Counted from the stretch's first letter, positions 3,035-44,982 are shown. The stretch is DNA of 64,000 bases from Candidatus Sigynarchaeum calidifontis (GCA_030587475.2 JAUQYZ020000102.1:1-64000); one strand, 5' to 3'. Notes: a model not told the origin generated them from the letters alone. A program made the numbers and translations.

Positions 3035-3342
3035 GGTCGATCATGTCTGTTTGATGTTCTCGATAGTTCCGTTGCAATGATGATCGGCTCATCTAGATAA
3101 AAGTTTTCCACCAATGAAAACGACGAAGGTGCTTGTCCGGCAAGCCAAGGCACGCACCTGGAAGGGATCAACACTAGTCGTGGTGGGTGCGTTAGATGAT
3201 CATTCCACGTTTTATTAGACCCGTTTCGGGTTACGTTTCCGTACCAAACGCTATCACTTTCGACGGACGCTGGCATATTGTTCCCCCGGGACACGATGGT
3301 GGGCGGCATGTTAATCATAACAAAAAGAGAAGGAAATGGGTA

Positions 3343-3444
3343 TGCTCCCGGTGGGATTCGATCCCACGACCTACGGTTTTCTTAATTCTTGAGTGGAACA
3401 AGGCCATATAAGACCGTCGCTCTACCAGGCTAAGCTACGGGAGC
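3343..3444 (-). tRNA. tRNA-Ile(UAU) with 28-nt intron at position 37/38 (intron 3379-3406)
   Basis: Reverse complement folds as GCTCCCG TA GCTT-AGCCTGGTA-GAGC G ACGGT CT TAT A [intron] A ACCGT AGGTC GTGGG-ATCGAAT-CCCAC CGGGAGC A; CTTA pairs with intronic TAAG flanked by 3-nt bulges (bulge-helix-bulge); CCA not encoded. Confidence 0.9.
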
Positions 3445-3608
3445 ACCCTGACAATCCTGGTGAATATCGTTAGCCACGCGGTGTTCGTTCAAGGCCAATT
3501 CACGCACCCGCCATATCCCCGGCCGGGCAATCCTTGGCACGTGGGAACGAGCCACGCATGCTCGAAAAATGCGAGGAAAAATAAAAGCCTTTGCCACGAT
3601 GCCTACGG

Positions 3609-4025
3609 TTAATTTGACGAGGCTGCTTCGACCTTTTTTATGCTTTTCTCGAGTGCCTTGACGAGCCGGGGCTCGCTGATGAGATCGTGCTCGATGGCGC
3701 ATGCCAGCCGGTGCTTCAAGTCCTTGTCGTCGAGTTCGAGCACCTTCGTGAAAAATGTTTCCAACAAGTGGTGCATCTCGAGCACCTTCATTGCCAGGTC
3801 GAGCCCCTTGGGGTTCAATCGAACGCCCAGGCGCTTCTTGTACTCGATGAGCCCTTCCTTCTGGAGTTTCACGAGAAATTCGGTCACCGATGGTGGTTTG
3901 ACCTTCATGGCCGTGGCTATCTCGATATTGCTGATGAAGGTATCCTTACCCTCTTTTTCCTTTGTGATGCGCAGGATGACTTCGAGGTATTCCTGGTAAT
4001 TTTGATTGAAAATCGTCTTGTCCAT
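3609..4025 (-). CDS. DtxR/MntR-family metal-dependent transcriptional regulator
   Basis: QEYLEVI, wHTH IATAMKVKPPSVTEFLVKL, HHLLETFF and ACAIEH metal-site motifs; no FeoA domain. Confidence 0.93.
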   Translation of the reverse strand: MDKTIFNQNYQEYLEVILRITKEKEGKDTFISNIEIATAMKVKPPSVTEFLVKLQKEGLIEYKKRLGVRLNPKGLDLAMKVLEMHHLLETFFTKVLELDDKDLKHRLACAIEHDLISEPRLVKALEKSIKKVEAASSN

Positions 4026-4047
4026 TTACAGCCCCCGAGATGTCCGA

Positions 4048-4063
4048 TTCGGAGGTATCCGAA
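4048..4063. promoter_or_regulatory. Inverted repeat, candidate autoregulatory operator of the DtxR-family gene
   Basis: TTCGGA-GGTA-TCCGAA between a minus-strand TATA-like element (AAACCTTATA, 4091-4100) and the start codon at 4025. Confidence 0.5.
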
Positions 4064-4136
4064 ACAAGTTATTCCATAGCGAGACGGAGATATAAGGTTT
4101 CGACCAGAGAAAAAGAAATGCTTCTCTCGGAGCCGA

Positions 4137-5114
4137 TCATGGTGACTTGACCCAGTCGACGTCGAACCGGCAATAGCGCATGTTCCGCCTGCGATTGTTG
4201 TAGACGAGGTGAAACAGCCCGTCCGATCCGATGATGATGGCGGGATAGGAGAAATGGCCGTCAGCATCGTCGCGCTCGATATCCTTCACGACAGGCCAGG
4301 TCTTGCCCTCGTCGGGCGAATACGCGATGTTGAGACAGCGCCGGTTTTGTGCCATGCTTCCGAGACGAGGGTTGTTGTTCCAGACGAGCACGATCTCGCC
4401 CTTGTCCGTGCGCACGAAATCGAGAGCAGAATTTGGATTTTTGAAGGGCAGCGCTTCACCGGGTGTCCAGGTCTCGCCGAGATCCTTGCTCGTTGATCGA
4501 TACACGTGGTTCATGTCAGTGCGAAGGAATGCCAGCAGCGAGCCGTCCGAGAGCCGCGTGATGGCCGGCTGCTCGTTATTTCCCTTGGGCAAGACGATAT
4601 CCCCGGACACGTGGAACGTCTCGCCGTCCACGGTGATCAAGATGTTTGAAACGCCCCGGGGGAACCGCACGTTCCCACCGGGAACGAGCAGCCGGTCACC
4701 CAGGACCAGCGGCTTCGTGCGCACGACGAACCCGCGCCGGCCAACGACGAGCCTGGCCTCCGACCACGTGCGGCCGAAGTCCGTGGATGTCTTGAGATAG
4801 AGTTTCGTGTTAAACCACGGGAACAAGGGAAAATGGATGACGTCGTAGAACATGTAAAGCTTCCCCTTGTACCAGGCCAGCACGGCGTTCCCGTCGGGCA
4901 GCTTCGGCGTTTTATGGATGAGGACGGGCTTCGTCCACGCGCCGCCCTTCATCGACTTCCACGACGCCATGAGGCCGACGGACGGGTGTGCCTCGTTCTT
5001 CCCGGCATAGTAAACGACCATGAGCTCGCCGTTCGGCAACTCCTGGATGACCGGGCAATGGCAGTGGGGATGATCGGGGTCGTACTCGAAGATGGTCTCG
5101 CGCTCGAAGAGCAT
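4137..5114 (-). CDS. BNR/Asp-box repeat sialidase-like protein
   Basis: Asp boxes STDFGRTW, SKDLGETW, SPDEGKTW; NPNS and FSYP motifs; no signal peptide. Confidence 0.88.
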   Translation of the reverse strand: MLFERETIFEYDPDHPHCHCPVIQELPNGELMVVYYAGKNEAHPSVGLMASWKSMKGGAWTKPVLIHKTPKLPDGNAVLAWYKGKLYMFYDVIHFPLFPWFNTKLYLKTSTDFGRTWSEARLVVGRRGFVVRTKPLVLGDRLLVPGGNVRFPRGVSNILITVDGETFHVSGDIVLPKGNNEQPAITRLSDGSLLAFLRTDMNHVYRSTSKDLGETWTPGEALPFKNPNSALDFVRTDKGEIVLVWNNNPRLGSMAQNRRCLNIAYSPDEGKTWPVVKDIERDDADGHFSYPAIIIGSDGLFHLVYNNRRRNMRYCRFDVDWVKSP

Positions 5115-5151
5115 TAGTCTTGCACCATGAAAGTTGTTTGGCAGATGGTAC

Positions 5152-5886
5152 TTATTTCTTCTTGCGGAGCTCGTCGATGCGGTTTCTTGGGGCGATCTTC
5201 ATGGGAATGGCGGGGCCGCGGGCGACCATCACGGCCACGAACGCCGCGTTCATGACGTAGAACGAGATGAACGAGAAAAACTCGGGGATCCCGTCGTTGA
5301 GGCCGAGGCTATCCGCGTAATCCGATGATGCGAAGATCCAGATGGCGACGTTCGACGCGAAGAACACGAGGTACGCGATGGCCCACTTGCGGGCTCCGTG
5401 GCGGTCACCCCACCATTCCCAGATGAATAAAATGCAAGCAAAGCCAGCCGCGGCAAAGAAGGTACCAGACTGGGACAAGTGATATCTAAACGTGATGTCC
5501 TCGTCCGTGAGGATGCCGGCGCCGATGAGCCCGCACGCGGCGATGATCATGAAGCAGAACGCGTTCCGCGCCTTCTTCTGCCCCGATACGTGCGAGCCGC
5601 GCGCGAAGATCGCGTACATCGGGATCAACGACGTGGCGCCGAGAACGTAGGCCGCGTTGAAGGCGGGCTGGCCGAAATATCCTTCCGAGCCACAAGCAAG
5701 GCTCTGGCGGCCGAGGCGGCTCAATGTATGCGCGACGAGGCTGAAATCCGGGTACATGCACATGGCGACGACGAGGAGCAAGAACGACAAGCAGAGGCCG
5801 GTGGTCGCGAGCAAGGCGACGAAGCGGGTGACGAATTCCTGGGTGATAAGTGGTATCATTGCTACACGAGACGTTGATTCCGACAT
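5152..5886 (-). CDS. DUF998-like multi-pass membrane protein
   Basis: YPDFS..HTLSRLG, FN and conserved His pattern; about 6 hydrophobic helices. Confidence 0.65.
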   Translation of the reverse strand: MSESTSRVAMIPLITQEFVTRFVALLATTGLCLSFLLLVVAMCMYPDFSLVAHTLSRLGRQSLACGSEGYFGQPAFNAAYVLGATSLIPMYAIFARGSHVSGQKKARNAFCFMIIAACGLIGAGILTDEDITFRYHLSQSGTFFAAAGFACILFIWEWWGDRHGARKWAIAYLVFFASNVAIWIFASSDYADSLGLNDGIPEFFSFISFYVMNAAFVAVMVARGPAIPMKIAPRNRIDELRKKK

Positions 5887-27176: not shown

Positions 27177-28598
27177 ATGATCCCCATGCTTTCCAGGGAC
27201 CTGGACTTGTTACTTGTCAATCCCGCGACCGAGCTCGCCAACCGTGGAACGTGGAACCGCGAACCGCCAGTGGGTTTACTCTACATCGCATCGGTGCTCG
27301 AGCGCGACGGGTTTTCCTGCCAGGTCATAGATCTCTCGGTCGATGACCGCCCCATCGAGGAAATCCTCGCCTGTTTGCCCGTGCCGCGCGTGATCGGCTT
27401 CACGTGCCTGACCAACACGTCGAAGGCCGCGCTGCGGCTTGCCAGCAAAACCCGGACATGGTACAAGACAGCAGAGCCGCCCGTTCCTATCGTGGTCATA
27501 GGCGGCCCGCATGCCACGTTCGCGTACAAGGAAATCCTTCCCACGGGAATCGTCGATTTTTGCTTCACGGGGGAGGTTGAAGGTTTTATCTCTCGGTTCG
27601 TCGGGATCGCCACCGAAGAGCAAGATCTCGCCGTAATAAAAAAGCGCGTGGCCATGGAAGGGGAGCAAACGATCAACATCGCCTTCCTGGACAACATGGG
27701 CTCAATTTCGGGTTTCACAGAAAACGAATCATTCCCGAGGGAACTCGATGCCTTGCCGTTCCCCGCGAGGCACTTGTGCCCGATCAACGCCAGCGATGGA
27801 GCCTACCGGACAGCTACCATCATTGTGAACCGGGGCTGCCCCAACCAGTGCATCTTCTGCAGCCGCCAGGCATTATTCCGAGAGTGCCGGCGAAGGTCAC
27901 CTGAGAACGTGCTCGCGGAGATCCGGGCAATCCACGATGCCGGACACTATGATTACTATAACTTGTACGATAACGTGACGGTCTCCCGCGAGTTCATGAA
28001 GCAGCTACTCCGGCTGATCGTCGCGGACCGGGACTTGCGGCTCCCGTGGGGCGCGGAGCTCCGGGCGGACATGATCGATGATGAAGCGGCTGGTCTCCTC
28101 AAGCAAGCGAATTGCAAGTGCGTTGCCACTGGGATCGAGTCGGCAGACGAGGGAATCTTAAAAATCGCGGGTAAATTCCAATCTATCGATAATGTAAAAA
28201 AAGGTCTGGCCGTTTTGAAGGCGAAGAAAATATCCATTCAAGCATACTTCGTTATCGGCCTTCCTGGCGAGACACGCACCACGTTCGAGAAGACCGTGGC
28301 CTTTCTCAATGCAAGTCCACTCGAGCCTGGCGTCGACAAGGTCGACTTCTTCGCGGCGACGCCATACCCGGGCTCGGCGCTCCACGAGCGCCGGGATGAG
28401 CTCGGGGTCGAGATCCTCGACCACGACACCGACCACTACGATTGCCAGCACCTCGTCTGCAAGCCCTCGTCCATCACCATGGCCGAGCTCGAGGCCATCT
28501 GGCAAGAGGCGAAAGCAATCGAAAAGGCCTTCAACAGCGGCAACTTGAAGAAAGCAACGCTACTAGGTTCAAAAGACGCACGCCATTCCACCACGTGA
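27177..28598 (+). CDS. B12-binding domain radical SAM protein
   Basis: PPVGLLYIASVL, GGPHAT, RGCPNQCIFC, GIES, IGLPGET and TPYPGS motifs. Confidence 0.93.
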   Translation: MIPMLSRDLDLLLVNPATELANRGTWNREPPVGLLYIASVLERDGFSCQVIDLSVDDRPIEEILACLPVPRVIGFTCLTNTSKAALRLASKTRTWYKTAEPPVPIVVIGGPHATFAYKEILPTGIVDFCFTGEVEGFISRFVGIATEEQDLAVIKKRVAMEGEQTINIAFLDNMGSISGFTENESFPRELDALPFPARHLCPINASDGAYRTATIIVNRGCPNQCIFCSRQALFRECRRRSPENVLAEIRAIHDAGHYDYYNLYDNVTVSREFMKQLLRLIVADRDLRLPWGAELRADMIDDEAAGLLKQANCKCVATGIESADEGILKIAGKFQSIDNVKKGLAVLKAKKISIQAYFVIGLPGETRTTFEKTVAFLNASPLEPGVDKVDFFAATPYPGSALHERRDELGVEILDHDTDHYDCQHLVCKPSSITMAELEAIWQEAKAIEKAFNSGNLKKATLLGSKDARHSTT

Positions 28599-28604
28599 AC
28601 CATA

Positions 28605-29222
28605 ATGGTCTCGCTCACGACGTCGCTGCGAAGGGGAATCAAGTACGACTGCATCGCCCCGGATAACTGCGACGGGCACTGCTGCTGGGGGGCCGGTTCG
28701 ATCTATATCTTCGCTGATGACATAGCACGCGCTGCCAAGTTCTTGAACATGGATCTCGACGATTTCTTGGACAAGCACGTGGATGTCATAGAAGCACCAC
28801 CCGTCCACGTTAAGTACGACGGCAAGATCCCCCAACTCGTGTTCAAGGAAACGGGGGAAAAGGCCGCGTGCCATTTCCAGGACGGGAAGGGCCTCTGCAC
28901 CATCCACCCGGCACGGCCGTTCCAGTGCAGCGGGTACCCGTTCTGGAAGATGAACGTGAAGAACAAGGAGGCGTGGGCGAAACTCGCCGCTGCTTGCCCC
29001 GCCGTGAAGGCATCGCGAAAGAAAAAAGGGGCCAAGTGGTACACGGCCGCCGAGATCAAGCGCCTCGTGCACGACGAGATCCAGCTGGACGTGGAATGGG
29101 AGAAATTGATGGTAGAATGGAAGGGCGATTACAGGAGCTATCTACACCAATTCGTTGCAAAACAAAATGCCCGACAAGATTACCAACGGAAGGGGAAGGA
29201 AACAAGCCCGCCCCCTTCATGA
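28605..29222 (+). CDS. YkgJ-family cysteine cluster protein
   Basis: C..C.G.CC and CHF...CTIHPARPFQCSGYPFW motifs. Confidence 0.9.
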   Translation: MVSLTTSLRRGIKYDCIAPDNCDGHCCWGAGSIYIFADDIARAAKFLNMDLDDFLDKHVDVIEAPPVHVKYDGKIPQLVFKETGEKAACHFQDGKGLCTIHPARPFQCSGYPFWKMNVKNKEAWAKLAAACPAVKASRKKKGAKWYTAAEIKRLVHDEIQLDVEWEKLMVEWKGDYRSYLHQFVAKQNARQDYQRKGKETSPPPS

Positions 29223-29229
29223 CATGCAA

Positions 29230-30582
29230 TCAGCATGCCGTGGTTTTCACGGGGCCATCGATGATGGCAACGCCAGCCAAAGCGCTTCCACCAATCACCA
29301 GCCCGACAACATAGGTGCCCGCGACGAAAACCACGCTCTCTGGGAGCGGGACGTCCGGCACAATCGTGGTCATGAAGCCGATGGCCACGAGGATCCCCTG
29401 GATCACGATGGCTTGCACGAGGGGTTGCCCGAACCATCGCTTACCCCGGTACTCGGCCTTGTACAAGAAGATGACGGATAAAATGAAGAACCCCCACATG
29501 GCCGTTACCATGGCGTACGTGATCCCCATCACCATCGTTGTAGCCCCGACATCACCGGCAAAGAAATTTCCTGCAAATCCATCTTCCGGCTTCATGCCAT
29601 TGTAGAGGGCAAGGGACACGCCGAGCACGAGCGGGAGATTGTGCCCGAACACGATCGATCGCTCGGTCGGCGGCTGGAACATACGCTCGGTCACTGCGAA
29701 TACGCCAGGAGCAAGGCCTTGCTCTTGCTTCGACACGGGCCGGTTCGTGGCGAAGTGCGCGACACCGATCGATGCCCCGCCAATGGCACCTATGCTCATC
29801 TCCCAAGCTTTCCAGGAGCTTGGCAGAGACATGAAGAACCAGCCCGAAGAGATCACGAACCCCGTGCCGAAACCCGCGGCCATGATGATCGAGGTCGCCA
29901 AGCCCCGCCAGTTCTTGTTCACGATCTCCGCGGCGAAAAAACCCCCGAACATCCCGAACTGGATCGCCGATGATGCTGCTGTCTCGACAGCACGGGCACA
30001 TTGCGCGCAAGTGGCAAGGTTCGCGTAATAGACCGAGCCATACAGCGGCAGCAGCAAACCGGGAAACGCGAGGAACGTGATGAGGCCGATGCCGGCACCG
30101 ATGCTGCCAAGGATCGCGCGGCGCATCCACGCCAGCTTCGCTGCCCGGCTATCGCCAGTTCCGGGGATCGCCCAGCCGAGCACGGCCCCCGCCGTTCCGC
30201 CCCATGAGAGACCACACTGCAGCAAGCCAAGAAAACCCCAAGCGGGATCCACGTCCACGGGCGTTCCCGATTGGATCATCCAGCTTCCCTTGATCCACGA
30301 GATGAATTGCCCGTACCCGTGGAACCCGCCGACCATGATGCCCGCGGCGAGGGCAAGGAACGCCCATCTCGATGCTATTGGCCTTGCAAAGCTGCTTCTA
30401 CCCGCCTTGCCGTCATTATTGGAAAGGAAATACCAGAGCACCGCCCAGCCCGTGCCCGCGAATAAGCCGCCCATCGAGCCGCCATAGCCGCCCGTGCCCC
30501 TGATACCCCAGAAGAAAGTGCCGAAACCCGCCATCATGGCTACTGGAAAGATCAGCTCCCGGAAGATCACCTTTGATTGCAT
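29230..30582 (-). CDS. Glycine-rich multi-pass membrane protein of unknown function
   Basis: 450-aa ORF with about 12 hydrophobic segments; WGIRG..GYGG..G motif. Confidence 0.75.
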   Translation of the reverse strand: MQSKVIFRELIFPVAMMAGFGTFFWGIRGTGGYGGSMGGLFAGTGWAVLWYFLSNNDGKAGRSSFARPIASRWAFLALAAGIMVGGFHGYGQFISWIKGSWMIQSGTPVDVDPAWGFLGLLQCGLSWGGTAGAVLGWAIPGTGDSRAAKLAWMRRAILGSIGAGIGLITFLAFPGLLLPLYGSVYYANLATCAQCARAVETAASSAIQFGMFGGFFAAEIVNKNWRGLATSIIMAAGFGTGFVISSGWFFMSLPSSWKAWEMSIGAIGGASIGVAHFATNRPVSKQEQGLAPGVFAVTERMFQPPTERSIVFGHNLPLVLGVSLALYNGMKPEDGFAGNFFAGDVGATTMVMGITYAMVTAMWGFFILSVIFLYKAEYRGKRWFGQPLVQAIVIQGILVAIGFMTTIVPDVPLPESVVFVAGTYVVGLVIGGSALAGVAIIDGPVKTTAC

Positions 30583-30697: not shown

Positions 30698-33589
30698 TCA
30701 CGAACGCCCTGTTACAAGGGAAAAAAGCTCGCTAGCCTCCTTTGCAGCCTCGTCGTACGGGATCGGGTGCTTGCCGTGGAATGGGGAGAGCCGTGAACCC
30801 AGGGCAGTGATGCGGTAGAAGACGAGGGCGAATGGCTTCGATGGCCCGGCGTGGCGGGCCGCGAACTCGATCTGCGCCAGGGACTCCGTGTCGTGCCCGC
30901 CGAACAACCCGATGAGGAACGGGTAGAGAAAATTGCCGAACCCGAAGAAGAACACGACCATGTAGACCATCGCCCCGCCCACGGGTGTCAAAGCCGCGAG
31001 TACCGAATCGTAGGACAAGCTCAGTAGCCAACTCAGGCCCGCGATGGCCAGACAAGAGAAGCCCGGCGCGACGATGGTCTGCCACCAGTTCACCCGCACC
31101 TTGATGATGCGCTTGTCCGTGAGGATCCACGTGAAGATCACCTTGAAAATGACCCCGGGGATTTCTGCAAATACGAACGCGAAGAATTGCAGCGAGCCGA
31201 TGGTCGATAGCAGGAACGTGATGCGGATCACTTGCTCGATGGCGACTGCCACGACGTATGTTCCAGCCCGGTCGATGGCGATGAGGAAAAACTTGGCGAA
31301 GTCACCGAGCGCTATGAAAAGTTTAGTGATCGAGTAAAGCATGATGACCATGCCCATGGGCTTGTAGAGCTCGGGCACCACGCTCGTGACGATGCGGTTG
31401 ACAGAGAAAGGCATTACGAACAGCGTGAAAAGAAGCAATGCAAACGTGCCGAAGTACTTGAACCCGTAAGAGACGAAAGCTTCCGCGAGCTTGACTTTCT
31501 TGTTGTTGTATGCCTCGCTTGTCGTGGGAAGCGCATTTTCATAAAGGACGGTCATGAACAAGATGGGATACGTGAGATACGTGGCGATGCCGATGAAAGA
31601 ACCGAGATATGTATAGTTATTGAGAAATAGCGTGATGATCAATACGGACGCAAAGTTGCCGAACAAGTATATCACGTTGGATAGCATGGACTTGAGGCCA
31701 AATACCAATGTCTCGCGAACGAGCCGCCAATCGAAGTCAAGGCGGAACATCTGCTTGACCGTGAACCGCGCGTCGATTTTTTTCAAGAACGCTGCGGATA
31801 GCAGCATTTGTGCAAGAGACCCAGCATACGATGCAATCGAGAGGCCGAGGCTGGAACCGATGACCTCCCCGATGAGCGGGTTTCGCGCGCCGATATTACG
31901 AAAGATTTCCGGGAGCACGGCCATTAGGCCGATTTGGAAAAATAGCAGACTTAAAAAATTAACAAGTGCTTCGAGATCTGTCCTTTGAGCGGACTTCAAT
32001 AAATGCGTAAATACATAGACGATTCCAGGGAACTGAACGAGGGAATTGACGACGAAAAAATAGGACATGAAGCCAATTGATGCGACACGCGGTACCAGGT
32101 ACACGCCAATCAAGGAAATCGCAGTTGTTTGCACCAGGCCACTGATCATTTGATACCAGATAAATAGCTGCACGTATCTGAGTGCACGGGCGGGATCCGT
32201 CGTCCAGTACTGTCCCACGAAACGATCATATGCCTGGGCAAGTCCAAAGTCCAGCGTGATGAACACGGCTGAAAAGATCGAGGAAATGATGAACTGGATG
32301 CCGAAGGAGCCGGGATCTTGAATGATGAATGTGGGCAAGATGTAGATGATGATCACGAACAGCGGGGCGACGACTACGAGCGTGATGAAAAACATCACGA
32401 AAAATCCGGCAAGGGGTTTATGGTAACCGGGCAGTTCCCATGATTTTTCGGACCCGATCGTCTCCAGAACGGGTGTTTCTTTCGCAGGCAAGGCCGGTTT
32501 TTTTCCCCGATTCACGAGCCTCTCGAAGAGTTTTTTTTTGGTTGCTTCCTTGGCCTTGCGCTCGGCCACGCGCTGCAAGTAAATCTCGACCGGCACGAGC
32601 TCCAGCGGCGTGGATCGCGTATATTTTCGGAAATACAGGAACATGACCACCGTGATGGCAGCAAAAGAACCGAGCAAGAGTAAGATGAATGCCTTGCTCG
32701 ACGCTTGTGGGATCGGCGCAAATGGCCAATCGGCAAATTGCACGACATCGCCCGGCACCTTGCCGGCGAGTTTCATGGTCGACACGTACACGAAATACGT
32801 CCAGTACGGCCAGTTTCCAAGGTTCTTGTTTGAACCAGCCCGGACAGGGGCAGCGAGTTCCACCACGCGCACGGACGGATCGGACAGCGTGGCGAGCATC
32901 GGGAACCGCTGGCTGCCAACCGTGAGCCCCCGGCTCCCTTCCACCAGCATCTTCGCACTTGGATGGGATGCCACGGTCTCGGTGAGGTTCAACAGCTGGG
33001 GGAGCGAGATGAAACCTATCCGGTCTTGAAGGATATCGTTCCCCGGGCTCACGATGGTGCCGATCGTGTCCGTCACGTTCTGGCGGATTTCTTTTGGGAA
33101 GCCTGAACCGTCGAGCACCGGTCGCAATGGCAAGACATCGTCGATGATGCTAAGCAAGGTCTGGTTGTACACCATGCTCGCGCTGTTCGCCTGGAAGAAC
33201 AAGCCGGCCGTGCCATTTTCAACCGCCCAGGTCAAGTTTTGCACCTGGCCGATCGTCAAGGTGGTGTTCCAGGGCAGATCAAGCATGTATACCACGTCGA
33301 AGGGCTGCGAATGGCTTGCCGGGTCTTGGATCGCAAATGCGGACATGTTCACGTCCGTGAAATAGGTGATGTTGAACGCCGGGTCGAGATCCAGGGCAAC
33401 CGGCCACGTTAACAAGTATTTCGAGCTGGACCTGGACGTGATGACGGCGATATCGATGGTATTCGATTGTGCGGGCGTGGCCGTGCCGGATTCATGCGCT
33501 TGTAACGATCGCGTGGTCATTGAAATCAAGATGGAAGCCACAATGCAGCATGTTACCACCAACGCCAGTTTCTTGCCGCGGGGAGCCAT
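30698..33589 (-). CDS. Extracellular domain + MOP/flippase-like multi-pass membrane protein (paralog B)
   Basis: Shares WPY, F.DW.F.P.P, YVQ.F.W.QM.SG.VQ, SL.Q.PG, QRTD and SEA motifs with 17961-20798; start approximate. Confidence 0.7.
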   Translation of the reverse strand: MAPRGKKLALVVTCCIVASILISMTTRSLQAHESGTATPAQSNTIDIAVITSRSSSKYLLTWPVALDLDPAFNITYFTDVNMSAFAIQDPASHSQPFDVVYMLDLPWNTTLTIGQVQNLTWAVENGTAGLFFQANSASMVYNQTLLSIIDDVLPLRPVLDGSGFPKEIRQNVTDTIGTIVSPGNDILQDRIGFISLPQLLNLTETVASHPSAKMLVEGSRGLTVGSQRFPMLATLSDPSVRVVELAAPVRAGSNKNLGNWPYWTYFVYVSTMKLAGKVPGDVVQFADWPFAPIPQASSKAFILLLLGSFAAITVVMFLYFRKYTRSTPLELVPVEIYLQRVAERKAKEATKKKLFERLVNRGKKPALPAKETPVLETIGSEKSWELPGYHKPLAGFFVMFFITLVVVAPLFVIIIYILPTFIIQDPGSFGIQFIISSIFSAVFITLDFGLAQAYDRFVGQYWTTDPARALRYVQLFIWYQMISGLVQTTAISLIGVYLVPRVASIGFMSYFFVVNSLVQFPGIVYVFTHLLKSAQRTDLEALVNFLSLLFFQIGLMAVLPEIFRNIGARNPLIGEVIGSSLGLSIASYAGSLAQMLLSAAFLKKIDARFTVKQMFRLDFDWRLVRETLVFGLKSMLSNVIYLFGNFASVLIITLFLNNYTYLGSFIGIATYLTYPILFMTVLYENALPTTSEAYNNKKVKLAEAFVSYGFKYFGTFALLLFTLFVMPFSVNRIVTSVVPELYKPMGMVIMLYSITKLFIALGDFAKFFLIAIDRAGTYVVAVAIEQVIRITFLLSTIGSLQFFAFVFAEIPGVIFKVIFTWILTDKRIIKVRVNWWQTIVAPGFSCLAIAGLSWLLSLSYDSVLAALTPVGGAMVYMVVFFFGFGNFLYPFLIGLFGGHDTESLAQIEFAARHAGPSKPFALVFYRITALGSRLSPFHGKHPIPYDEAAKEASELFSLVTGRS

Positions 33590-33673
33590 GTGCTTTGCTC
33601 GACGAGTGTCGATAAAAACATACCGCAAAAAAGCGGAATATGCATCATGAACTGGAGGGCACGCGGCGCAAGA

Positions 33674-33952
33674 TTACCCGCAGCACGAACCGCCCGTGCC
33701 TTTTTTCGTGCCGATCCGGCGACGGCTCACGTCCCACAAGCACCCGCAGCCTTTCTGCTCTTGCATGACAACCGCCTTCTCGGGACAGTTCTTTTGACAC
33801 GCGGAACATTCGGTGCACAAGTCTGGCCGTAGTATCGTGTATTTTCCGCTTTCTGAGCGAGCTGGAAGGCCGAACGGGCACACCTCCGCGCACGTGCCGC
33901 ACCCCGTGCAAGCATTCTGGTTGATGCGGATGCGCGGGGCCTCGATCTTCAT
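33674..33952 (-). CDS. hgcB: HgcB-type 2x[4Fe-4S] ferredoxin
   Basis: CTGCGTCAEVCP and CTECSACQKNCP, then GCGC and C-terminal vicinal cysteines (GSCCG); immediately downstream of the hgcA-like gene. Confidence 0.85.
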   Translation of the reverse strand: MKIEAPRIRINQNACTGCGTCAEVCPFGLPARSESGKYTILRPDLCTECSACQKNCPEKAVVMQEQKGCGCLWDVSRRRIGTKKGTGGSCCG

Positions 33953-34010
33953 ATCGACAACGACCGGCCCTTGAAGCCGTGCACTATTCGATGGTCTCTG
34001 CAACATGGGT

Positions 34011-35693
34011 CTATGTCACCAACATGCCGATGGCTGATAAGGTTATCCCAAGGCCCAGGAACGCCACGTTCAGCACCTGGAAGCGCACGAATTCCCCGGC
34101 GATCTCCCTGGGGCTCGTGTCCATTGTGTACCCCGAAAAGGACATCGTCGTGAAGAATCCGGTCCAGAACTGGAATGGCAAGTTCCACGTGTATGTCGCA
34201 ACGGGAAGCTGTAGCATCCACGCCGCCAGGCCCATGATCGTCACGTTCAACACGGCCACGACGAGTCCTTTCTGCACGAACCAGCGCGTGAAGCGGGTGA
34301 TCGGGTATAAAATCCCCAGCAAAAGGAAATTGGTGGTGAAAAGCGATGCCCACAACTCACCCGTGAAGGCAAGGAGCCAACCAGCGCCGCGCCACGTCGT
34401 TAACAGACCGATGATGGCCACAGCGACCAGGCTTATTGTTGGAAGCAAAAATATCTTGCGCGCCTGAAACGTGAAATGCGTGATCCCCGCTTGCATCCGG
34501 TGGCCGATCGTGAATTTCGCGACTTTCCATGCCTCCGGCTTCCGCGCGGGGCGGGTTTTCAGGTACGCGGGAAGGTCTCTCGACCAGACGGGGCCGTACT
34601 TCACCACGAAAGGGAACTTGTCCGTGTTCTTGGGCAAGTCGGGCGCTTCGATTCCCCCCGCGGCGAGCTGCGGGAGGATCAAGGTGCGGCTCGACGTTAT
34701 CGACGCGATCCCCGTGGCTTCGACCGCCTCGAGCAGCTGCCGGTTGCCGAAGTGACCGCCGCGTGCCCCGCACCAGACGTTGATGCCGTCCGAGTCGACG
34801 ACCAAAACCCACGCATCGACCTTGCCGCGTCGCAAGTCGCGCATCACGCGGAAGTACGTGTACTCGTAGTTGGCGGTCACCAGCACGGGCGCGTCGGGGC
34901 CGGGGTTGCCGGACGCGTAGATCCCGGGCTCGATGGACACGTGATCCACCTGCCCGGTGAGCAAGCAACGCCACGCGCGTAGCCGCGCCCTGGCGCCAGT
35001 GAACGCGCGCTTCTGGGGGCGATAATAGCCGGGCGCACTCGAATGATCCACCACGACCTTCTCGAACGCCAAAACTTTGATGGCACCGTGTGCCCAGGAC
35101 TGCTCGCCAGCAAGCTTGAAGCCGATAACGGCCGGATAACGGGAAAACCACTCGAGCGGGTGCGTTAGCCCCGTGCGGAGCCTTTTCGCCTTGCGCTTGT
35201 ACCACCAGCGCTTCAACGCAAAACCTACTTTCCAGAAGCCGCGGGGAATGAACTCGTCCGCGACCAAGAGCTTGCCGCCCGGCTTGAGAGCGAGCCACGC
35301 CTTTCGCAAGAAGACTTGTTGCTCCAATGGCCGCAGCTCGGAGAGAACGAACGTGCTCACGACCGCGTCATACTCGCTTGTTTTCGGCTCGTACATCATC
35401 ACGTTGCCCCATTCGAACTTCACGGGAAGATCCTTGATCTTGTCCCTATTCGCCCGGGCTTGCTTGAGCATTCCGAGATTTTGTTCTATCGCTGTAACGA
35501 TGTGGCCTTGCTGGCCCATCAAGATGGAAAGCGTACCGGGACCAGGGCCTATCTCGAGCACGCTGCTCGACGGGCGGAGTTGCCGGAGGATCCAGTCTTG
35601 CACACGCTTGTTAACCCCGCCGGTTAGAGCCGTGAAACCTTGCTCGTACGTGGCCGGTTCTTGCTCGAGCTTTTTCATGAAAACAACGGACAT
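34011..35693 (-). CDS. hgcA: Class I SAM methyltransferase fused to HgcA-type corrinoid protein with C-terminal TM domain
   Basis: N-terminal VLEIGPGPG, YDAVVSTFVLSEL, LKPGGKLLVADE; then EPGIY..GNP...APVLVTANYEYT, DSDGINVWCGARGGHF, LILPQLAAGGI, VKYGPV; 4-5 TM helices with FSGYT. Confidence 0.85.
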   Translation of the reverse strand: MSVVFMKKLEQEPATYEQGFTALTGGVNKRVQDWILRQLRPSSSVLEIGPGPGTLSILMGQQGHIVTAIEQNLGMLKQARANRDKIKDLPVKFEWGNVMMYEPKTSEYDAVVSTFVLSELRPLEQQVFLRKAWLALKPGGKLLVADEFIPRGFWKVGFALKRWWYKRKAKRLRTGLTHPLEWFSRYPAVIGFKLAGEQSWAHGAIKVLAFEKVVVDHSSAPGYYRPQKRAFTGARARLRAWRCLLTGQVDHVSIEPGIYASGNPGPDAPVLVTANYEYTYFRVMRDLRRGKVDAWVLVVDSDGINVWCGARGGHFGNRQLLEAVEATGIASITSSRTLILPQLAAGGIEAPDLPKNTDKFPFVVKYGPVWSRDLPAYLKTRPARKPEAWKVAKFTIGHRMQAGITHFTFQARKIFLLPTISLVAVAIIGLLTTWRGAGWLLAFTGELWASLFTTNFLLLGILYPITRFTRWFVQKGLVVAVLNVTIMGLAAWMLQLPVATYTWNLPFQFWTGFFTTMSFSGYTMDTSPREIAGEFVRFQVLNVAFLGLGITLSAIGMLVT

Positions 35694-35699
35694 GAGGGT

Positions 35700-35963
35700 T
35701 CACTTTAAAAGGGGTTCCATGAACTCCTTGATGGGCCCGGACAGCGTGTCAACCTTTATCAGGGAAACGCAGCAAGGGTTTCCTCCTCTTGATAAGGTGA
35801 TGACCGCGATCTTGTCCCCCGCGTTCCAGCCAAGCTTGTTCCGGATATCTTTCGACAAAACTAGCTGGCCGCGGGCGTCTATCGACGTGATGGCATCTAT
35901 CTTGCAGATCGATCGTAGTTCCTGCTTGCACCCGCAAGTGCTATCGGTGTCGGGCATTGTCAT
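35700..35963 (-). CDS. hgcC: HgcC-like AbrB/MazE/SpoVT-family protein
   Basis: CKIDAITSIDARGQLVLSKDIRNKLGWNAGDKIAVI....PCCVSLIK; Cys-rich; 6 nt upstream of the hgcA fusion. Confidence 0.8.
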   Translation of the reverse strand: MTMPDTDSTCGCKQELRSICKIDAITSIDARGQLVLSKDIRNKLGWNAGDKIAVITLSRGGNPCCVSLIKVDTLSGPIKEFMEPLLK

Positions 35964-36147: not shown

Positions 36148-37380
36148 ATGGCAACCGAAACCAGAAGAGGACTCTCGGAACGCGTGGCAAGAATGGCCCA
36201 TGCACTGGAGCGCCGCATGGACTATCTTAAGGCTCTCCAGGGAAGTGGTTTTACCATTGCCACGATCCTTTTCATAGCGATCTCCACGCATTTCTTCGTC
36301 CAGACCTTGAGGTCGGTCATCATTGCCCCGGCTATATTCGATGAGCTCCTGCCCGTTTTCATTGCGTTGATCGCCACCCCTTTCGCCGTGGCTGCCCTCA
36401 CGCTCGTGTGCAATGATCCATTTCTCGGCCTGGTAGGCGCGTTCGTGCAAGCACTAGGGAGGGGATTCTTGCTCATGCCCTCCGATGCGGAGAACCTGGG
36501 CTATTACGCCGGCATGATCTGTGGCATTTTCGGCTATTCGTTGGCCTTTCTCGGGGTGCTCGGGGCGGTTCTCACGCGTTCCCCGCTCAATGTTTCACAA
36601 GACCAGGAAAAAACACGGCCATCTGCGATTGCCGGGGGAACGCTGCTCGGCATGGCGATGAACATCGTTCTCCGTTTGCCAAGTCCTGTTGGAGCCAGCA
36701 TCGCGGAGAACATCTTGTGCAATTGCATGTTATTCCTCGTTTTTTCTTCCGTCGCGCTATATTGGTACAAGGGACATCATCAGGAGCACAACATTCTCAA
36801 GAACGTCCTGCCGGCTGATACCAAGCGCGGCAAGGCAAAAAAATTCCGAAAGACCCTGCATATCTTCATGCTTGGACCATGTTTCGCTGTCCTGGGGTTT
36901 TATTTCAACCGGCCCGAGTGGATCGCGGCTGCAGCCGGAATGCCCTACACGGCGACCGCCTACGTGCTCGTCTTGTCTATCTTGGTAGCCCCGCTCGTGC
37001 GGGCGCTCGGCGTATTCAGAAAACAGGCACGGGATGTCGTAACGCTGGCTTGCATCGCCGCTTCATTCGTTGGCATCGGTTTCATGCATTTCTTGCCTGC
37101 CGGCCCATATCTCTTGATCCTCATCGTGCCAACCCCGTTCGGGCTGGGACTCATCATTGATAGAGCCATCTCACAAACGGCCCTGGAACGCGCCGACAAC
37201 GTGGATATCACGATCATCCTCGCCTGGATGGTCTCCCTTGCGAGTATTCTCGGGTCAAACGTGCTTTCTCTACTCATTTTCATTCCTTACGCGGGGATTA
37301 TCGTCATGGCCCCGCTTGTCCTATACACAGCAATTGATGCCATCAATACTATAAAGCGCGGGAGCGAGGTAGGAGAATAG
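36148..37380 (+). CDS. Multi-pass membrane protein of unknown function
   Basis: 410 aa with about 12 hydrophobic helices in a 6+6 arrangement. Confidence 0.75.
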   Translation: MATETRRGLSERVARMAHALERRMDYLKALQGSGFTIATILFIAISTHFFVQTLRSVIIAPAIFDELLPVFIALIATPFAVAALTLVCNDPFLGLVGAFVQALGRGFLLMPSDAENLGYYAGMICGIFGYSLAFLGVLGAVLTRSPLNVSQDQEKTRPSAIAGGTLLGMAMNIVLRLPSPVGASIAENILCNCMLFLVFSSVALYWYKGHHQEHNILKNVLPADTKRGKAKKFRKTLHIFMLGPCFAVLGFYFNRPEWIAAAAGMPYTATAYVLVLSILVAPLVRALGVFRKQARDVVTLACIAASFVGIGFMHFLPAGPYLLILIVPTPFGLGLIIDRAISQTALERADNVDITIILAWMVSLASILGSNVLSLLIFIPYAGIIVMAPLVLYTAIDAINTIKRGSEVGE

Positions 37381-42762: not shown

Positions 42763-44982
42763 TTATTTCCGTGTGTAGATGAACCGGTCCCACGAGGACG
42801 GGTTCGGGAGTTCCAGGGGCATTTTCTTGCGCTTCCGGATCTCCATAATAACCTTGTTCGAATCCGGCACGGGTTCGAAGCCGAGGAACTCGTACCCGAA
42901 CAGCGCTTTTCCCGACGTGACGGAGCGGAACTCGTCCGCGAGGCCGATGGTCTCCACCGCGGGAAGCTTGCCCGTGATGTGCATGAGGTTCTCCTCCTGG
43001 ACCATGTTTAACACCTGGCCGCGATGGGCTGTGAGAACGCCTATGATATTGCCTTCCATACCCATCGGGGTCTTGATGTCGACGCGCTGGACGGGCTCGT
43101 AGAGCTTGGGCTTGGCCGACAAGAAACACAGCGACAGGTTGCTTATAGTCATGCCGGCGATTTCGTTGAAGCCCGTGTGCGCGGAATCCTCGTGCACCGT
43201 GGCATCCGTGAAGACCGCCTTGATGGCCGAGACGGGCTCCTTGGCAAGCGGGCCACCCTCGAGCCACTCGCGCCATGCAGCGATCAGGTACGACTTAATC
43301 TTGTCGAGGCGTTGTAGCCCGTGGGTGTCATTGACAAGGATATTTCCCTCGTACACGTCCCAGATGTTGCGAGCCTCTTTTGCGTCCCAGCCGGCCTCGT
43401 CTCGCAGTACTTGAGCACGAATTTTCTCCTTTTGATCCGCGGTGACCTTGCCGTCCATGACAAGCTGGAGGGTCTTCTCATCCAGGGGCTCGAAGTGCAT
43501 CAGCAAGCGGTTGTGGCCGTTGGCGCTCTTCGTGTGGTACTCGCTAGATTTTTGCGTGATGCGCTCGCGGTACACGATGATCGGGTCGCTCACGATGATC
43601 GGGACTTGCATGTTCACCCGCTTCGTGATGATCTCAATCTGGAGCGGGTCAATCCCCGAGAGGATGTACTCGCCCGACTCTTTATCCTTCACGAACTTGG
43701 CCGTGTTGTCGGCCATGAGCCACTTCGACACCACGTCACCGAGCTTGGCAATGTCCTTCGAATCCTTGGCCTTGATGGACTGGGACACGACCGGTTCGCA
43801 GACATACTTGATCTGCTCGAAGGGGATCATTTCCTCGATCTGTTCGTCCGGGATGTCGCCCGAAACGAATGTCTCGCCGGCGGGGCAAATGAACCCGAAC
43901 ACCGCGAATAGATTCCCCGCGGGCACGTGATCCATGTCCAAAATATCGGTGATCTCCATGACACCAAGTCGTTTAATTTTTTGGCGTTCCTTGCGACCCA
44001 TCAAGTAAATGCTATCTCCGGCGTGCAGCGTACCCGAGAACACGCGGCCAATGAGCGTGGGACGGAAACTCTTGGGATCGATGAAGATCTTGAGGATGAG
44101 GCCGAGTAGTGGGCCGTTCGGATCCGACGTGAGAAGGGCCTTTCCGAGGGTTGAATCGAGATCGCCAGGCCAAATCTTTGGGATACGGAACTTCGCCGCT
44201 TCGAGCGGATTAGGTAAATGTTCGATGACCATCTGGAGCACGACGTCATCGAGGGGGAGGTTCTTCCGAAGCCAGAGAACATCGTTTTCCGAGTATTTCT
44301 TAAAGAAAATGTCGGGCTTGAGGCCCTTGTCCTGGAGCACCTTGAAGTTGAAGCCCCAGCCGTCCTTTGCACTGCCGATCGCGACCGAATTGTTTTTAAA
44401 GTCGACTTTCCAGCCGGAGTCCTTTGGGGCCACCTCCTTTATGAGACGGTTGACATCGTTGATGATCTTATCGAGGCGCAGGTAGAAGTCCTTTTGCGTG
44501 AGGCGCAGCTCCGAAATGAGCCGGTCGGCCTTGTTCAAGAAGAGGACGGGCTTGCACTTCTCCTCGCCTACGGCCAGGCGGATGTTCGTCTCGGTCTGGG
44601 TCATCATGCCCTCGAGGGCATCGACCAGGATGAGCGCACCATCGGAACCCCGCAATGCCCTGCTCACCTCGCCCGTGAAGCTGATATGGCCTGGCGTGTC
44701 GTTTATTTGGGCAATGTATTCTTTCCCGCCATATTCATACGCGAGGAGCACGACGCTCGTGAAGATCGTGATTCCACGAGCTTGCTCCTCCTCGTCGCTA
44801 TCCATCATACCGAGATGGCCGGCATCTTGCTCTCGCATCAAACCAGCTCGCCGGAGTAGGTAATCTGCCATCGTTGTCTTTCCGTGGTCGATATGAGCAG
44901 TGATAGTAAAGATGCGGCGGTATTCAAAAGCGGATTTCGTCACCATTTCGATGATTTCTTGATCATTTTTTACTCGAACCAT
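42763..44982 (-). CDS. fusA: Archaeal translation elongation factor EF-2 (non-canonical diphthamide loop)
   Basis: AHIDHGKTT, RGITI, DTPGH and NKAD GTPase motifs; domain IV loop VHEDSAHTG. Confidence 0.93.
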   Translation of the reverse strand: MVRVKNDQEIIEMVTKSAFEYRRIFTITAHIDHGKTTMADYLLRRAGLMREQDAGHLGMMDSDEEEQARGITIFTSVVLLAYEYGGKEYIAQINDTPGHISFTGEVSRALRGSDGALILVDALEGMMTQTETNIRLAVGEEKCKPVLFLNKADRLISELRLTQKDFYLRLDKIINDVNRLIKEVAPKDSGWKVDFKNNSVAIGSAKDGWGFNFKVLQDKGLKPDIFFKKYSENDVLWLRKNLPLDDVVLQMVIEHLPNPLEAAKFRIPKIWPGDLDSTLGKALLTSDPNGPLLGLILKIFIDPKSFRPTLIGRVFSGTLHAGDSIYLMGRKERQKIKRLGVMEITDILDMDHVPAGNLFAVFGFICPAGETFVSGDIPDEQIEEMIPFEQIKYVCEPVVSQSIKAKDSKDIAKLGDVVSKWLMADNTAKFVKDKESGEYILSGIDPLQIEIITKRVNMQVPIIVSDPIIVYRERITQKSSEYHTKSANGHNRLLMHFEPLDEKTLQLVMDGKVTADQKEKIRAQVLRDEAGWDAKEARNIWDVYEGNILVNDTHGLQRLDKIKSYLIAAWREWLEGGPLAKEPVSAIKAVFTDATVHEDSAHTGFNEIAGMTISNLSLCFLSAKPKLYEPVQRVDIKTPMGMEGNIIGVLTAHRGQVLNMVQEENLMHITGKLPAVETIGLADEFRSVTSGKALFGYEFLGFEPVPDSNKVIMEIRKRKKMPLELPNPSSWDRFIYTRK

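Follow-up and report, generated by a model that had tools for sequence, protein, structure and literature searches.

The 64,000-nucleotide stretch of Candidatus Sigynarchaeum calidifontis analysed here (GCA_030587475.2, JAUQYZ020000102.1:1-64000; its full length is called the window) contains a minus-strand operon of three genes, hgcC, a fusion gene and a ferredoxin gene, separated by gaps of 6 and 4 nt. The fusion is a single 560-aa open reading frame (ORF) with zero internal stops, joining an S-adenosylmethionine (SAM) methyltransferase, apparently a divergent CpaM relative, to a corrinoid-binding membrane protein related to the HgcA of mercury methylators, and the ferredoxin resembles HgcB. 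It belongs to the Loki/Thor fusions, a well-supported third clade beside canonical HgcA and the 'HgcAB-like' proteins. We give an even chance to the explanation that the system is a self-loading, membrane-bound corrinoid methyltransferase acting on thiol-bound metal(loid), with arsenic or antimony likelier than mercury. An earlier note, made from the DNA alone, had read the locus as an hgcC-[methyltransferase::hgcA]-hgcB operon. Its three tightly spaced genes, the unbroken fusion with a LEIGPGPG motif, corrinoid domain and transmembrane helices (five of them), the hgcC call and the ferredoxin with two CxxCxxCxxxC motifs and a terminal CC were all borne out, but the names hgcA and hgcB were overstated.

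Relationship to HgcA and HgcB

Against the canonical HgcA model NF040863 (cut-off 275) the fusion scored 158.2 bits as a whole protein and 159.6 as the domain alone; the positive control, the HgcA of locus L011, reached 436 bits and the fetched control proteins passed their own models. The scores for the HgcAB-like family NF043039 (173 bits, cut-off 285; the ferredoxin is here a separate gene) and for the CdhE/CFeSP large subunit NF003195 (80.7-82 bits, cut-off 306; transmembrane and methyltransferase domains are found instead of a soluble protein with an N-terminal Fe-S domain) also fell short. The motifs recommended for HgcA and HgcB are a cap N[V/I]WC[A/S][A/G/S]GK and C(M/I)ECGA, respectively (PMC10087281). 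The window fusion has NVWCGARG at aa 305 and the ferredoxin CTECSA, so that the Hg-MATE motifs fail. The earlier note had read this cap and its Cys correctly. NVWC(A/G)ARG is the reading in 120/120 best homologues, and the cap Arg is thus a family signature and not a peculiarity of this copy. Cys308 of the cap helix, invariant in 91 homologues, is the predicted cobalt ligand, and the HgcA-type C-terminal domain of five transmembrane helices is present. The ferredoxin reaches 55.7 bits with the HgcB model NF040864 (cut-off 99) and is 35% identical to the canonical HgcB of L011. It keeps the two CxxCxxCxxxC motifs, a GCGC aligned to the GVGC of that protein (the Cys73 equivalent), a C-terminal SCCG and the position directly downstream of an hgcA-like gene.

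With CdhE as the root, a tree of corrinoid domains (147 columns; a larger sequence set was also run) gave a HgcA-family branch at 100/100 and within it canonical HgcA (97/97*), the HgcAB-like group (97/81*) and the Loki+Thor fusions (99/91*), the star marking good support. The window protein is placed among the last, outside canonical HgcA and, as regards the comparison proposed in the earlier note, not with CdhE. In the best tree the Loki/Thor clade is sister to canonical HgcA (97/78, not starred), but a sister position to the HgcAB-like group explains the data equally well (p-AU 0.53), indicating that the branching order of the three clades is not fixed on 147 columns. The system resembles HgcAB in its design, but its genes should not be filed as HgcA/HgcB nor as an HgcAB-like fusion.

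That the fusion could be a CdhE/CFeSP paralogue or an assembly chimera is effectively refuted by homologues and architecture. An approximately unbiased (AU) test on the 147 columns does not formally reject grouping the window protein with CdhE (lnL 18.5 lower, p 0.157); against this stand the 100/100 branch, 160-173 bits with the HgcA-type models versus 82 for CdhE, the transmembrane domain and cap Cys, and a separate CdhE-like gene in the same genome. The corrinoid-binding domain is homologous to that of the CFeSP large subunit CdhE/AcsC (2h9a), a protein with Thr/Ala-Trp-Ala at the cap position, no cap Cys, transmembrane or SAM domain, and a methyl group received from a folate/pterin TIM-barrel enzyme. 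The chimera, which the earlier note had named as a possible undoing of its reading, is rejected by 276 homologues from independent sources.

The system could instead be a true mercury methylator whose cap helix has diverged. Like canonical HgcA/HgcB it has the cap Cys, the five transmembrane helices, a 2x[4Fe-4S] ferredoxin encoded separately downstream and keeping the Cys73-type and terminal cysteines, an hgcC neighbour over its cut-off and a frequent ArsR/ars context, and the best tree places the clades as sisters. However, we think it unlikely, with mercury possibly only a side substrate. The N-terminal CpaM, the (A/G)ARG in place of (A/G)GK, CTECSA, the low scores for both proteins and the separate clade all differ from the canonical system, the alternative grouping is equally good, the tested organisms with a fused HgcAB yielded no methylmercury (PMC4646819, PMC10087281), and mer genes were not recognised among the annotated recurring neighbours. 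If it were true, Asgard archaea would be an unrecognised methylmercury source.

The CpaM-like methyltransferase and its corrinoid partner

CpaM ('corrinoid protein-associated methyltransferase', NF043040) is by a wide margin the best-scoring family for the N-terminal domain, which matches model positions 1-213 of 216 with 144.8 bits, below the cut-off of 180 (control L041, 282 bits). Residues M6, L9, E10, P13, G49/51/53 and E119 are invariant in the CpaM-like domain, and the fusion to an HgcA-like corrinoid protein also suggests a divergent member of this family; NCBI labels some Hodarchaeales fusions CpaM. The NCBIfam matches cover aa 2-209 (CpaM) and aa 235-555 (both HgcA and NF043039), and Pfam adds class I methyltransferase domains at aa ~45-145 and CdhD at aa 243-345. 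Stand-alone CpaM was found in Bathyarchaeia, Dehalococcoidia, Anaerolineae and others, in agreement with the suggestion of the earlier note that the domain belongs to a family of stand-alone corrinoid-associated methyltransferases.

We surveyed 50 strong CpaM loci from metagenomes, 43 of them with sequence downstream. An HgcA-like gene was fused or adjacent in 43/43 of the latter, compared with 0/30 for weaker methyltransferases, and among the caps read in CpaM loci none was of the canonical AAGK type. CpaM is therefore a dedicated, fixed partner of non-canonical HgcA relatives. Once purified, canonical HgcAB accepts the methyl group of SAM with no other protein present (PMC11588087); mercury methylators therefore do not lack a component that the fusion would supply. 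The idea that it could act as a Rosetta stone for methyl loading fails for those organisms and holds only for the CpaM-associated branches, for which the fusion marks a specific requirement. There, the CpaM domain probably performs the SAM-to-cobalt methyl loading.

Alternatively CpaM could only reactivate or prime the cobamide, much as the SAM domain does in methionine synthase, with a reductive or reverse cycle such as methyl-arsenical demethylation/reduction or dehalogenation. Loading of canonical HgcAB without an extra methyltransferase, the reported dehalogenation of CCl4 by HgcAB (10.64898/2026.04.26.720869) and anaerobic arsenic demethylation, described as unresolved in 10.64898/2026.08.27.747368, speak for it, as does the co-occurrence with ArsM described below, which suggests a different chemistry. 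We nevertheless regard it as quite improbable, because the loci have no conserved downstream methyl acceptor or carrier, and an obligatory and repeatedly fused SAM enzyme would fit stoichiometric use more simply.

The AlphaFold2 model of the fusion (91 homologues; pLDDT 91.5, pTM 0.89) has a Rossmann methyltransferase, the corrinoid domain and then helices at 396-431, 436-468, 472-493, 498-519 and 528-559. Foldseek ranked the HgcAB model 9a0b first and class I methyltransferases after it, and the methyltransferase part has a fold like that of membrane-associated small-molecule methyltransferases (PmtA, Coq5). When the halves were folded as separate chains with SAM and scored against control partners, the CpaM half with the corrinoid half gave 0.73 and the best control 0.00, a mark reached by 58/80 solved complexes and 2/110 mismatched pairs. 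The runs shared >=93% of contacts with partner pLDDT >=82. The predicted interface (methyltransferase 121-134 and 181-191; partner 221-227, 253-257, 299-302 and 319-327) showed higher conservation (0.77) than the remaining soluble residues (0.68; p=0.005), which supports a predicted docking of the CpaM domain on the corrinoid domain.

An ArsM-like methyltransferase was rejected as the identity of this domain: NF008823 gave 30.3 bits (cut-off 263), and there are zero cysteines in aa 1-212. ArsM shares the class I SAM fold and also occurs in ars operons, but the fusion differs in having no catalytic Cys in the methyltransferase domain and in being coupled to a corrinoid protein. Without ArsM-type cysteines, the CpaM domain is unlikely to bind a metalloid itself.

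Ferredoxin cysteines, arsenic genes and the candidate substrate

HgcB does not function without Cys73 and loses 95% of its activity when both terminal cysteines are gone; these residues are needed for mercury handling and are proposed metal carriers (PMC7305189). We compared 74 loci in which the methyltransferase is fused and the ferredoxin free with 27 ferredoxin-fused forms. GxGC was found in 72/74 versus 0/27, the terminal CC in 62/74 versus 1/27 and a Cys in the Cys243 region of the fusion in 55/74 versus 0/27; in one alignment Cys243 was present in 97% of the sequences. The cysteines kept in the ferredoxin, together with none in the methyltransferase domain, suggest that the tail of the ferredoxin handles a thiol-bound metal(loid). 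CpaM together with the HgcAB-like fusion protein (NF043039, the 'fused HgcAB' of Podar 2015) has the same methyltransferase family, gene order and a non-AAGK cap, but the joint is on the other side (here the methyltransferase is joined and the ferredoxin free), the clade is a separate starred one, and both the retained metal-binding cysteines and the ars genes adjacent in half of the loci set the fusion apart, as do its sub-cut-off scores (145/180 and 173/285). A metal(loid) as substrate has, in our estimate, slightly better than an even chance.

The gene neighbourhood was examined in ~65 loci chosen by score and contig size and not by their neighbours. Recurrent neighbours were ArsR (with a C-V-C-E box), Acr3 (over its cut-off), an ArsC-like protein, a small CxC protein, DUF166 and a Cys-rich MarR. 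ArsR, Acr3 or ArsC lay <=3.2 kb from the fusion in 25/51 Loki/Thor loci (ArsR 23, Acr3 11, ArsC 4), spread over families f3, f4 and f31, versus 0/29 loci of other architectures or clade. The order divergent arsR, acr3, fusion, ferredoxin was found in families f3 and f4, including the complete genomes G143 and G138, the fusion was co-oriented directly behind acr3 in two families, and in Thor-type loci (f31) arsR was often directly upstream. Canonical hgcAB is also arsenic-induced and ArsR-linked (10.1101/2022.10.17.512643). It is because of this context that arsenic is favoured over mercury, and of the two substrates offered by the earlier note arsenic stays a candidate while the canonical criteria for mercury failed. 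That arsenic or antimony is the selected substrate we would hold tentatively, somewhat short of an even chance. In ars-type loci the small CxC protein (~95 aa, PLxxCxCxW) stands directly after the ferredoxin (L167:8490-8801 and 11 others); it matched no Pfam family, and an Atlas search gave unnamed clusters and a sub-0.9 thioredoxin-like lead.

The analysis shows the parts of the system and how well they are conserved, the constant pairing of CpaM with non-canonical HgcA relatives, and the HgcB cysteines that are kept; from these we infer the following scheme. The 2x[4Fe-4S] ferredoxin would reduce the cobamide to Co(I), as in HgcAB; the docked CpaM domain would bind SAM and methylate Co(I), giving a methyl-Co(III) ligated by Cys308; the GCGC and terminal CC of the ferredoxin, perhaps with Cys243, would bind the metal(loid) and bring it to the methyl-cobalt; and the product would leave, accompanied in many relatives by ArsR-controlled efflux through Acr3.

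Several points weigh against this scheme, which draws on sequence, models and context. The ars counts come from related, non-independent genomes and the profiles were built on these same neighbours; 26/51 relatives, about half, have no ars neighbour (a Cys-rich MarR in 12), and the window operon, led by hgcC, has no ars gene either. ArsR-type regulators sense other metals too. Of the 400 Asgard genomes, 214 encode a conventional ArsM, in many cases alongside the fusion, so that simple arsenite methylation would often be redundant. Moreover, ND132 deprived of hgcAB was not significantly less resistant to arsenic (10.1101/2022.10.17.512643). As for the docking, halves of a single protein tend to pass such a test, and the interface in the prediction forms a tether at the side of the corrinoid domain. 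ArsM was absent from the source genome (89% complete), but the fusion as an ArsM replacement is unsupported as a rule, since ArsM co-occurs in many carriers. The source genome does carry a divergent acr3-arsR pair on another contig (C158, L214:5329-6968), unlinked from the fusion and 62% and 51% identical to the pairs flanking the fusion in other Lokiarchaeia. The window copy is less informative than the ars-linked members.

The methyl group could also go to an organic acceptor, be it a lipid, a cofactor or a peptide, which is also the suspicion for other CpaM/HgcAB-like modules; the ars genes would then be hitch-hiking in a stress regulon. The HgcAB-like clade has CpaM too and yet no ars link in the 29 loci, the methyltransferase fold resembles PmtA and Coq5, and the window copy and half of its relatives lack ars neighbours. 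Even so, this remains unlikely to us, although less so than mercury: the extra ferredoxin cysteines are retained specifically in the free-ferredoxin fusion architecture, the adjacent regulators are consistently Cys-rich (ArsR, MarR, HgcC), and the fusion directly follows acr3 in the two families mentioned.

Distribution, the window locus and significance

The 276 homologues come from NCBI, JGI, ENA and Logan, the best 120 (46-81% identity, 95-100% coverage) being named from Loki-, Sigyn-, Hod-, Heimdall-, Thor- and Hermodarchaeota. Their origin and kinship indicate an Asgard host (Lokiarchaeia) for the window. An HgcA-like match was found in 202/400 genomes of the Asgard phylum and the HgcA cut-off was passed by 1. 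Among 150 matches listed, 115 sit in 550-611-aa frames, and 28 of the best 30 loci have the fusion, 27 of these 28 with the ferredoxin directly downstream. The survey proposed in the earlier note thus finds the fusion widely conserved, mostly in Loki, Thor and Hod lineages. The only canonical hgcA-hgcB pair among the 400 genomes searched (L011:732-2092, 436 and 108 bits) is in G397, an assembly with 9% contamination.

Anaerolineae carry a similar fusion, and Chloroflexota fusions (Atlas clusters) have the same overall arrangement (TM 0.73 over 523 residues), probably of independent origin. The tree puts the hodarchaeal fusions and those of Chloroflexota within the HgcAB-like group, indicating that the methyltransferase was fused more than once; the starred branches force at least three changes. 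Triple fusions CpaM::corrinoid/transmembrane::ferredoxin in a single chain of 580-640 aa occur in metagenome contigs and in Asgard family f19 (L087, L093, L095, L096, L098, L100, L190-L192). Furthermore, some Lokiarchaeia have beside the fusion a second, split CpaM plus HgcAB-like module (L215:6435-8254 in G143, L195, L196) without ars neighbours, an in-genome control for function.

The features of the operon are collected in Table 1.

Table 1 Features of the three-gene operon in the window
Feature	Position	Strand	Basis
hgcC, AbrB/MazE-fold HgcAB-associated protein, 87 aa	35700..35963	-	NF040962, 93.8 bits
CpaM::HgcA-like fusion gene, 560 aa	34011..35693	-	ORF, NCBIfam, homologues, AlphaFold model
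CpaM-like class I SAM methyltransferase domain, aa 1-212	35058..35693	-	NF043040, 144.8 bits
SAM-binding motif I LEIGPGPG, aa 46-53	35535..35558	-	G49/G51/G53 invariant in 91 homologues
Linker plus helix, aa 213-250, including the docking strand PGYYRP and a conserved Cys (243)	34944..35057	-	residues 221-227 in predicted interface
Corrinoid-binding domain, aa 251-395	34509..34943	-	PF03599; homology to CFeSP large subunit 2h9a; Foldseek
Cap helix NVWCGARG, aa 305-312	34758..34781	-	Cys308 invariant, predicted cobalt ligand
Membrane domain, five helices, aa 396-559	34014..34508	-	sequence and AlphaFold model
HgcB-like 2x[4Fe-4S] ferredoxin, 110 aa	33674..34006	-	NF040864, 55.7 bits
Ferredoxin GCGC, aa 86-89, equivalent of GVGC/Cys73 in ND132 HgcB	33740..33751	-	alignment with L011 HgcB
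Ferredoxin terminal vicinal Cys-Cys, aa 108-109, equivalent of Cys94/Cys95	33680..33685	-	sequence

The hgcC product, which adjoins the hgcA-like gene, passed its model (cut-off 70) and scored 27.9 with AbrB TIGR01439 (cut-off 28.3). With its 5 Cys, including CGC and CC, it is a probable regulator or metal(loid)-binding accessory. The gene also leads the operon in the close relatives L135-L137, but it was not found upstream of the fusion in G280 or G281, of the same family. The ferredoxin has an alternative ATG start at aa 19, and a scan of the locus for promoters and terminators gave signals at chance level. Three large membrane proteins without a Pfam family flank the operon (30698-33628 and 29230-30582, minus strand; 36148-37380, plus strand) and keep their positions around the fusion in G280 (L210; 65%, 50% and 39% identity). 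At 4.5-6.5 kb downstream of the operon there are a B12-binding radical SAM gene and a CxxCxxCC protein (27177-29222, plus strand), a pair found at a similar distance from the fusion in L135 (16324-17707). Elsewhere in the window an EF-2 homologue (42763-44982, minus strand; 649 bits, aEF-2 cut-off 738) reads HEDSAHTG at the diphthamide loop and resembles the Asgard EF-2 paralogue aEF-2p. In L135 an 846-aa reverse-transcriptase-domain gene (3316-5856) lies between the EF-2 and CCA-adding enzyme genes; the window has no such gene at the matching position.

The components are catalogued families, but the combination, the separate clade and the signature of cysteines and ars genes were not found in the literature searched. 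No paper on the fusion appeared in searches on the fusion, CpaM and Asgard hgcA, most subscription journals lying outside them. Lin et al. 2023 place Asgard sequences in the fused-HgcAB subtree (PMC10083202), and a term search of that paper gave no mention of a methyltransferase fusion. Surveys that use the short motif N(V/I)WCA(A/G) (e.g. PMC12484752) would score most of the clade as mercury methylators with no evidence for it, while the window copy with its NVWCGARG would escape them.

The native function of HgcAB is a long-standing question for which an arsenic link is suspected. The Loki/Thor clade unites in a compact form a SAM-loading module, the metal-binding cysteines of HgcB and a frequent ars context, and two complete genomes carry it (G143, 4,324,194 bp; G138, 6,035,313 bp). 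It may be, although here we lean further towards doubt than on the substrate itself, that the clade represents, as a third branch of the HgcA family, an enzyme for cobalamin-dependent methyl transfer to arsenic (or antimony) that is separate from ArsM and in which the native function would be preserved, mercury methylation by canonical HgcAB being a derived side reaction. The fusion clade makes the question of the native function of the HgcA family testable.

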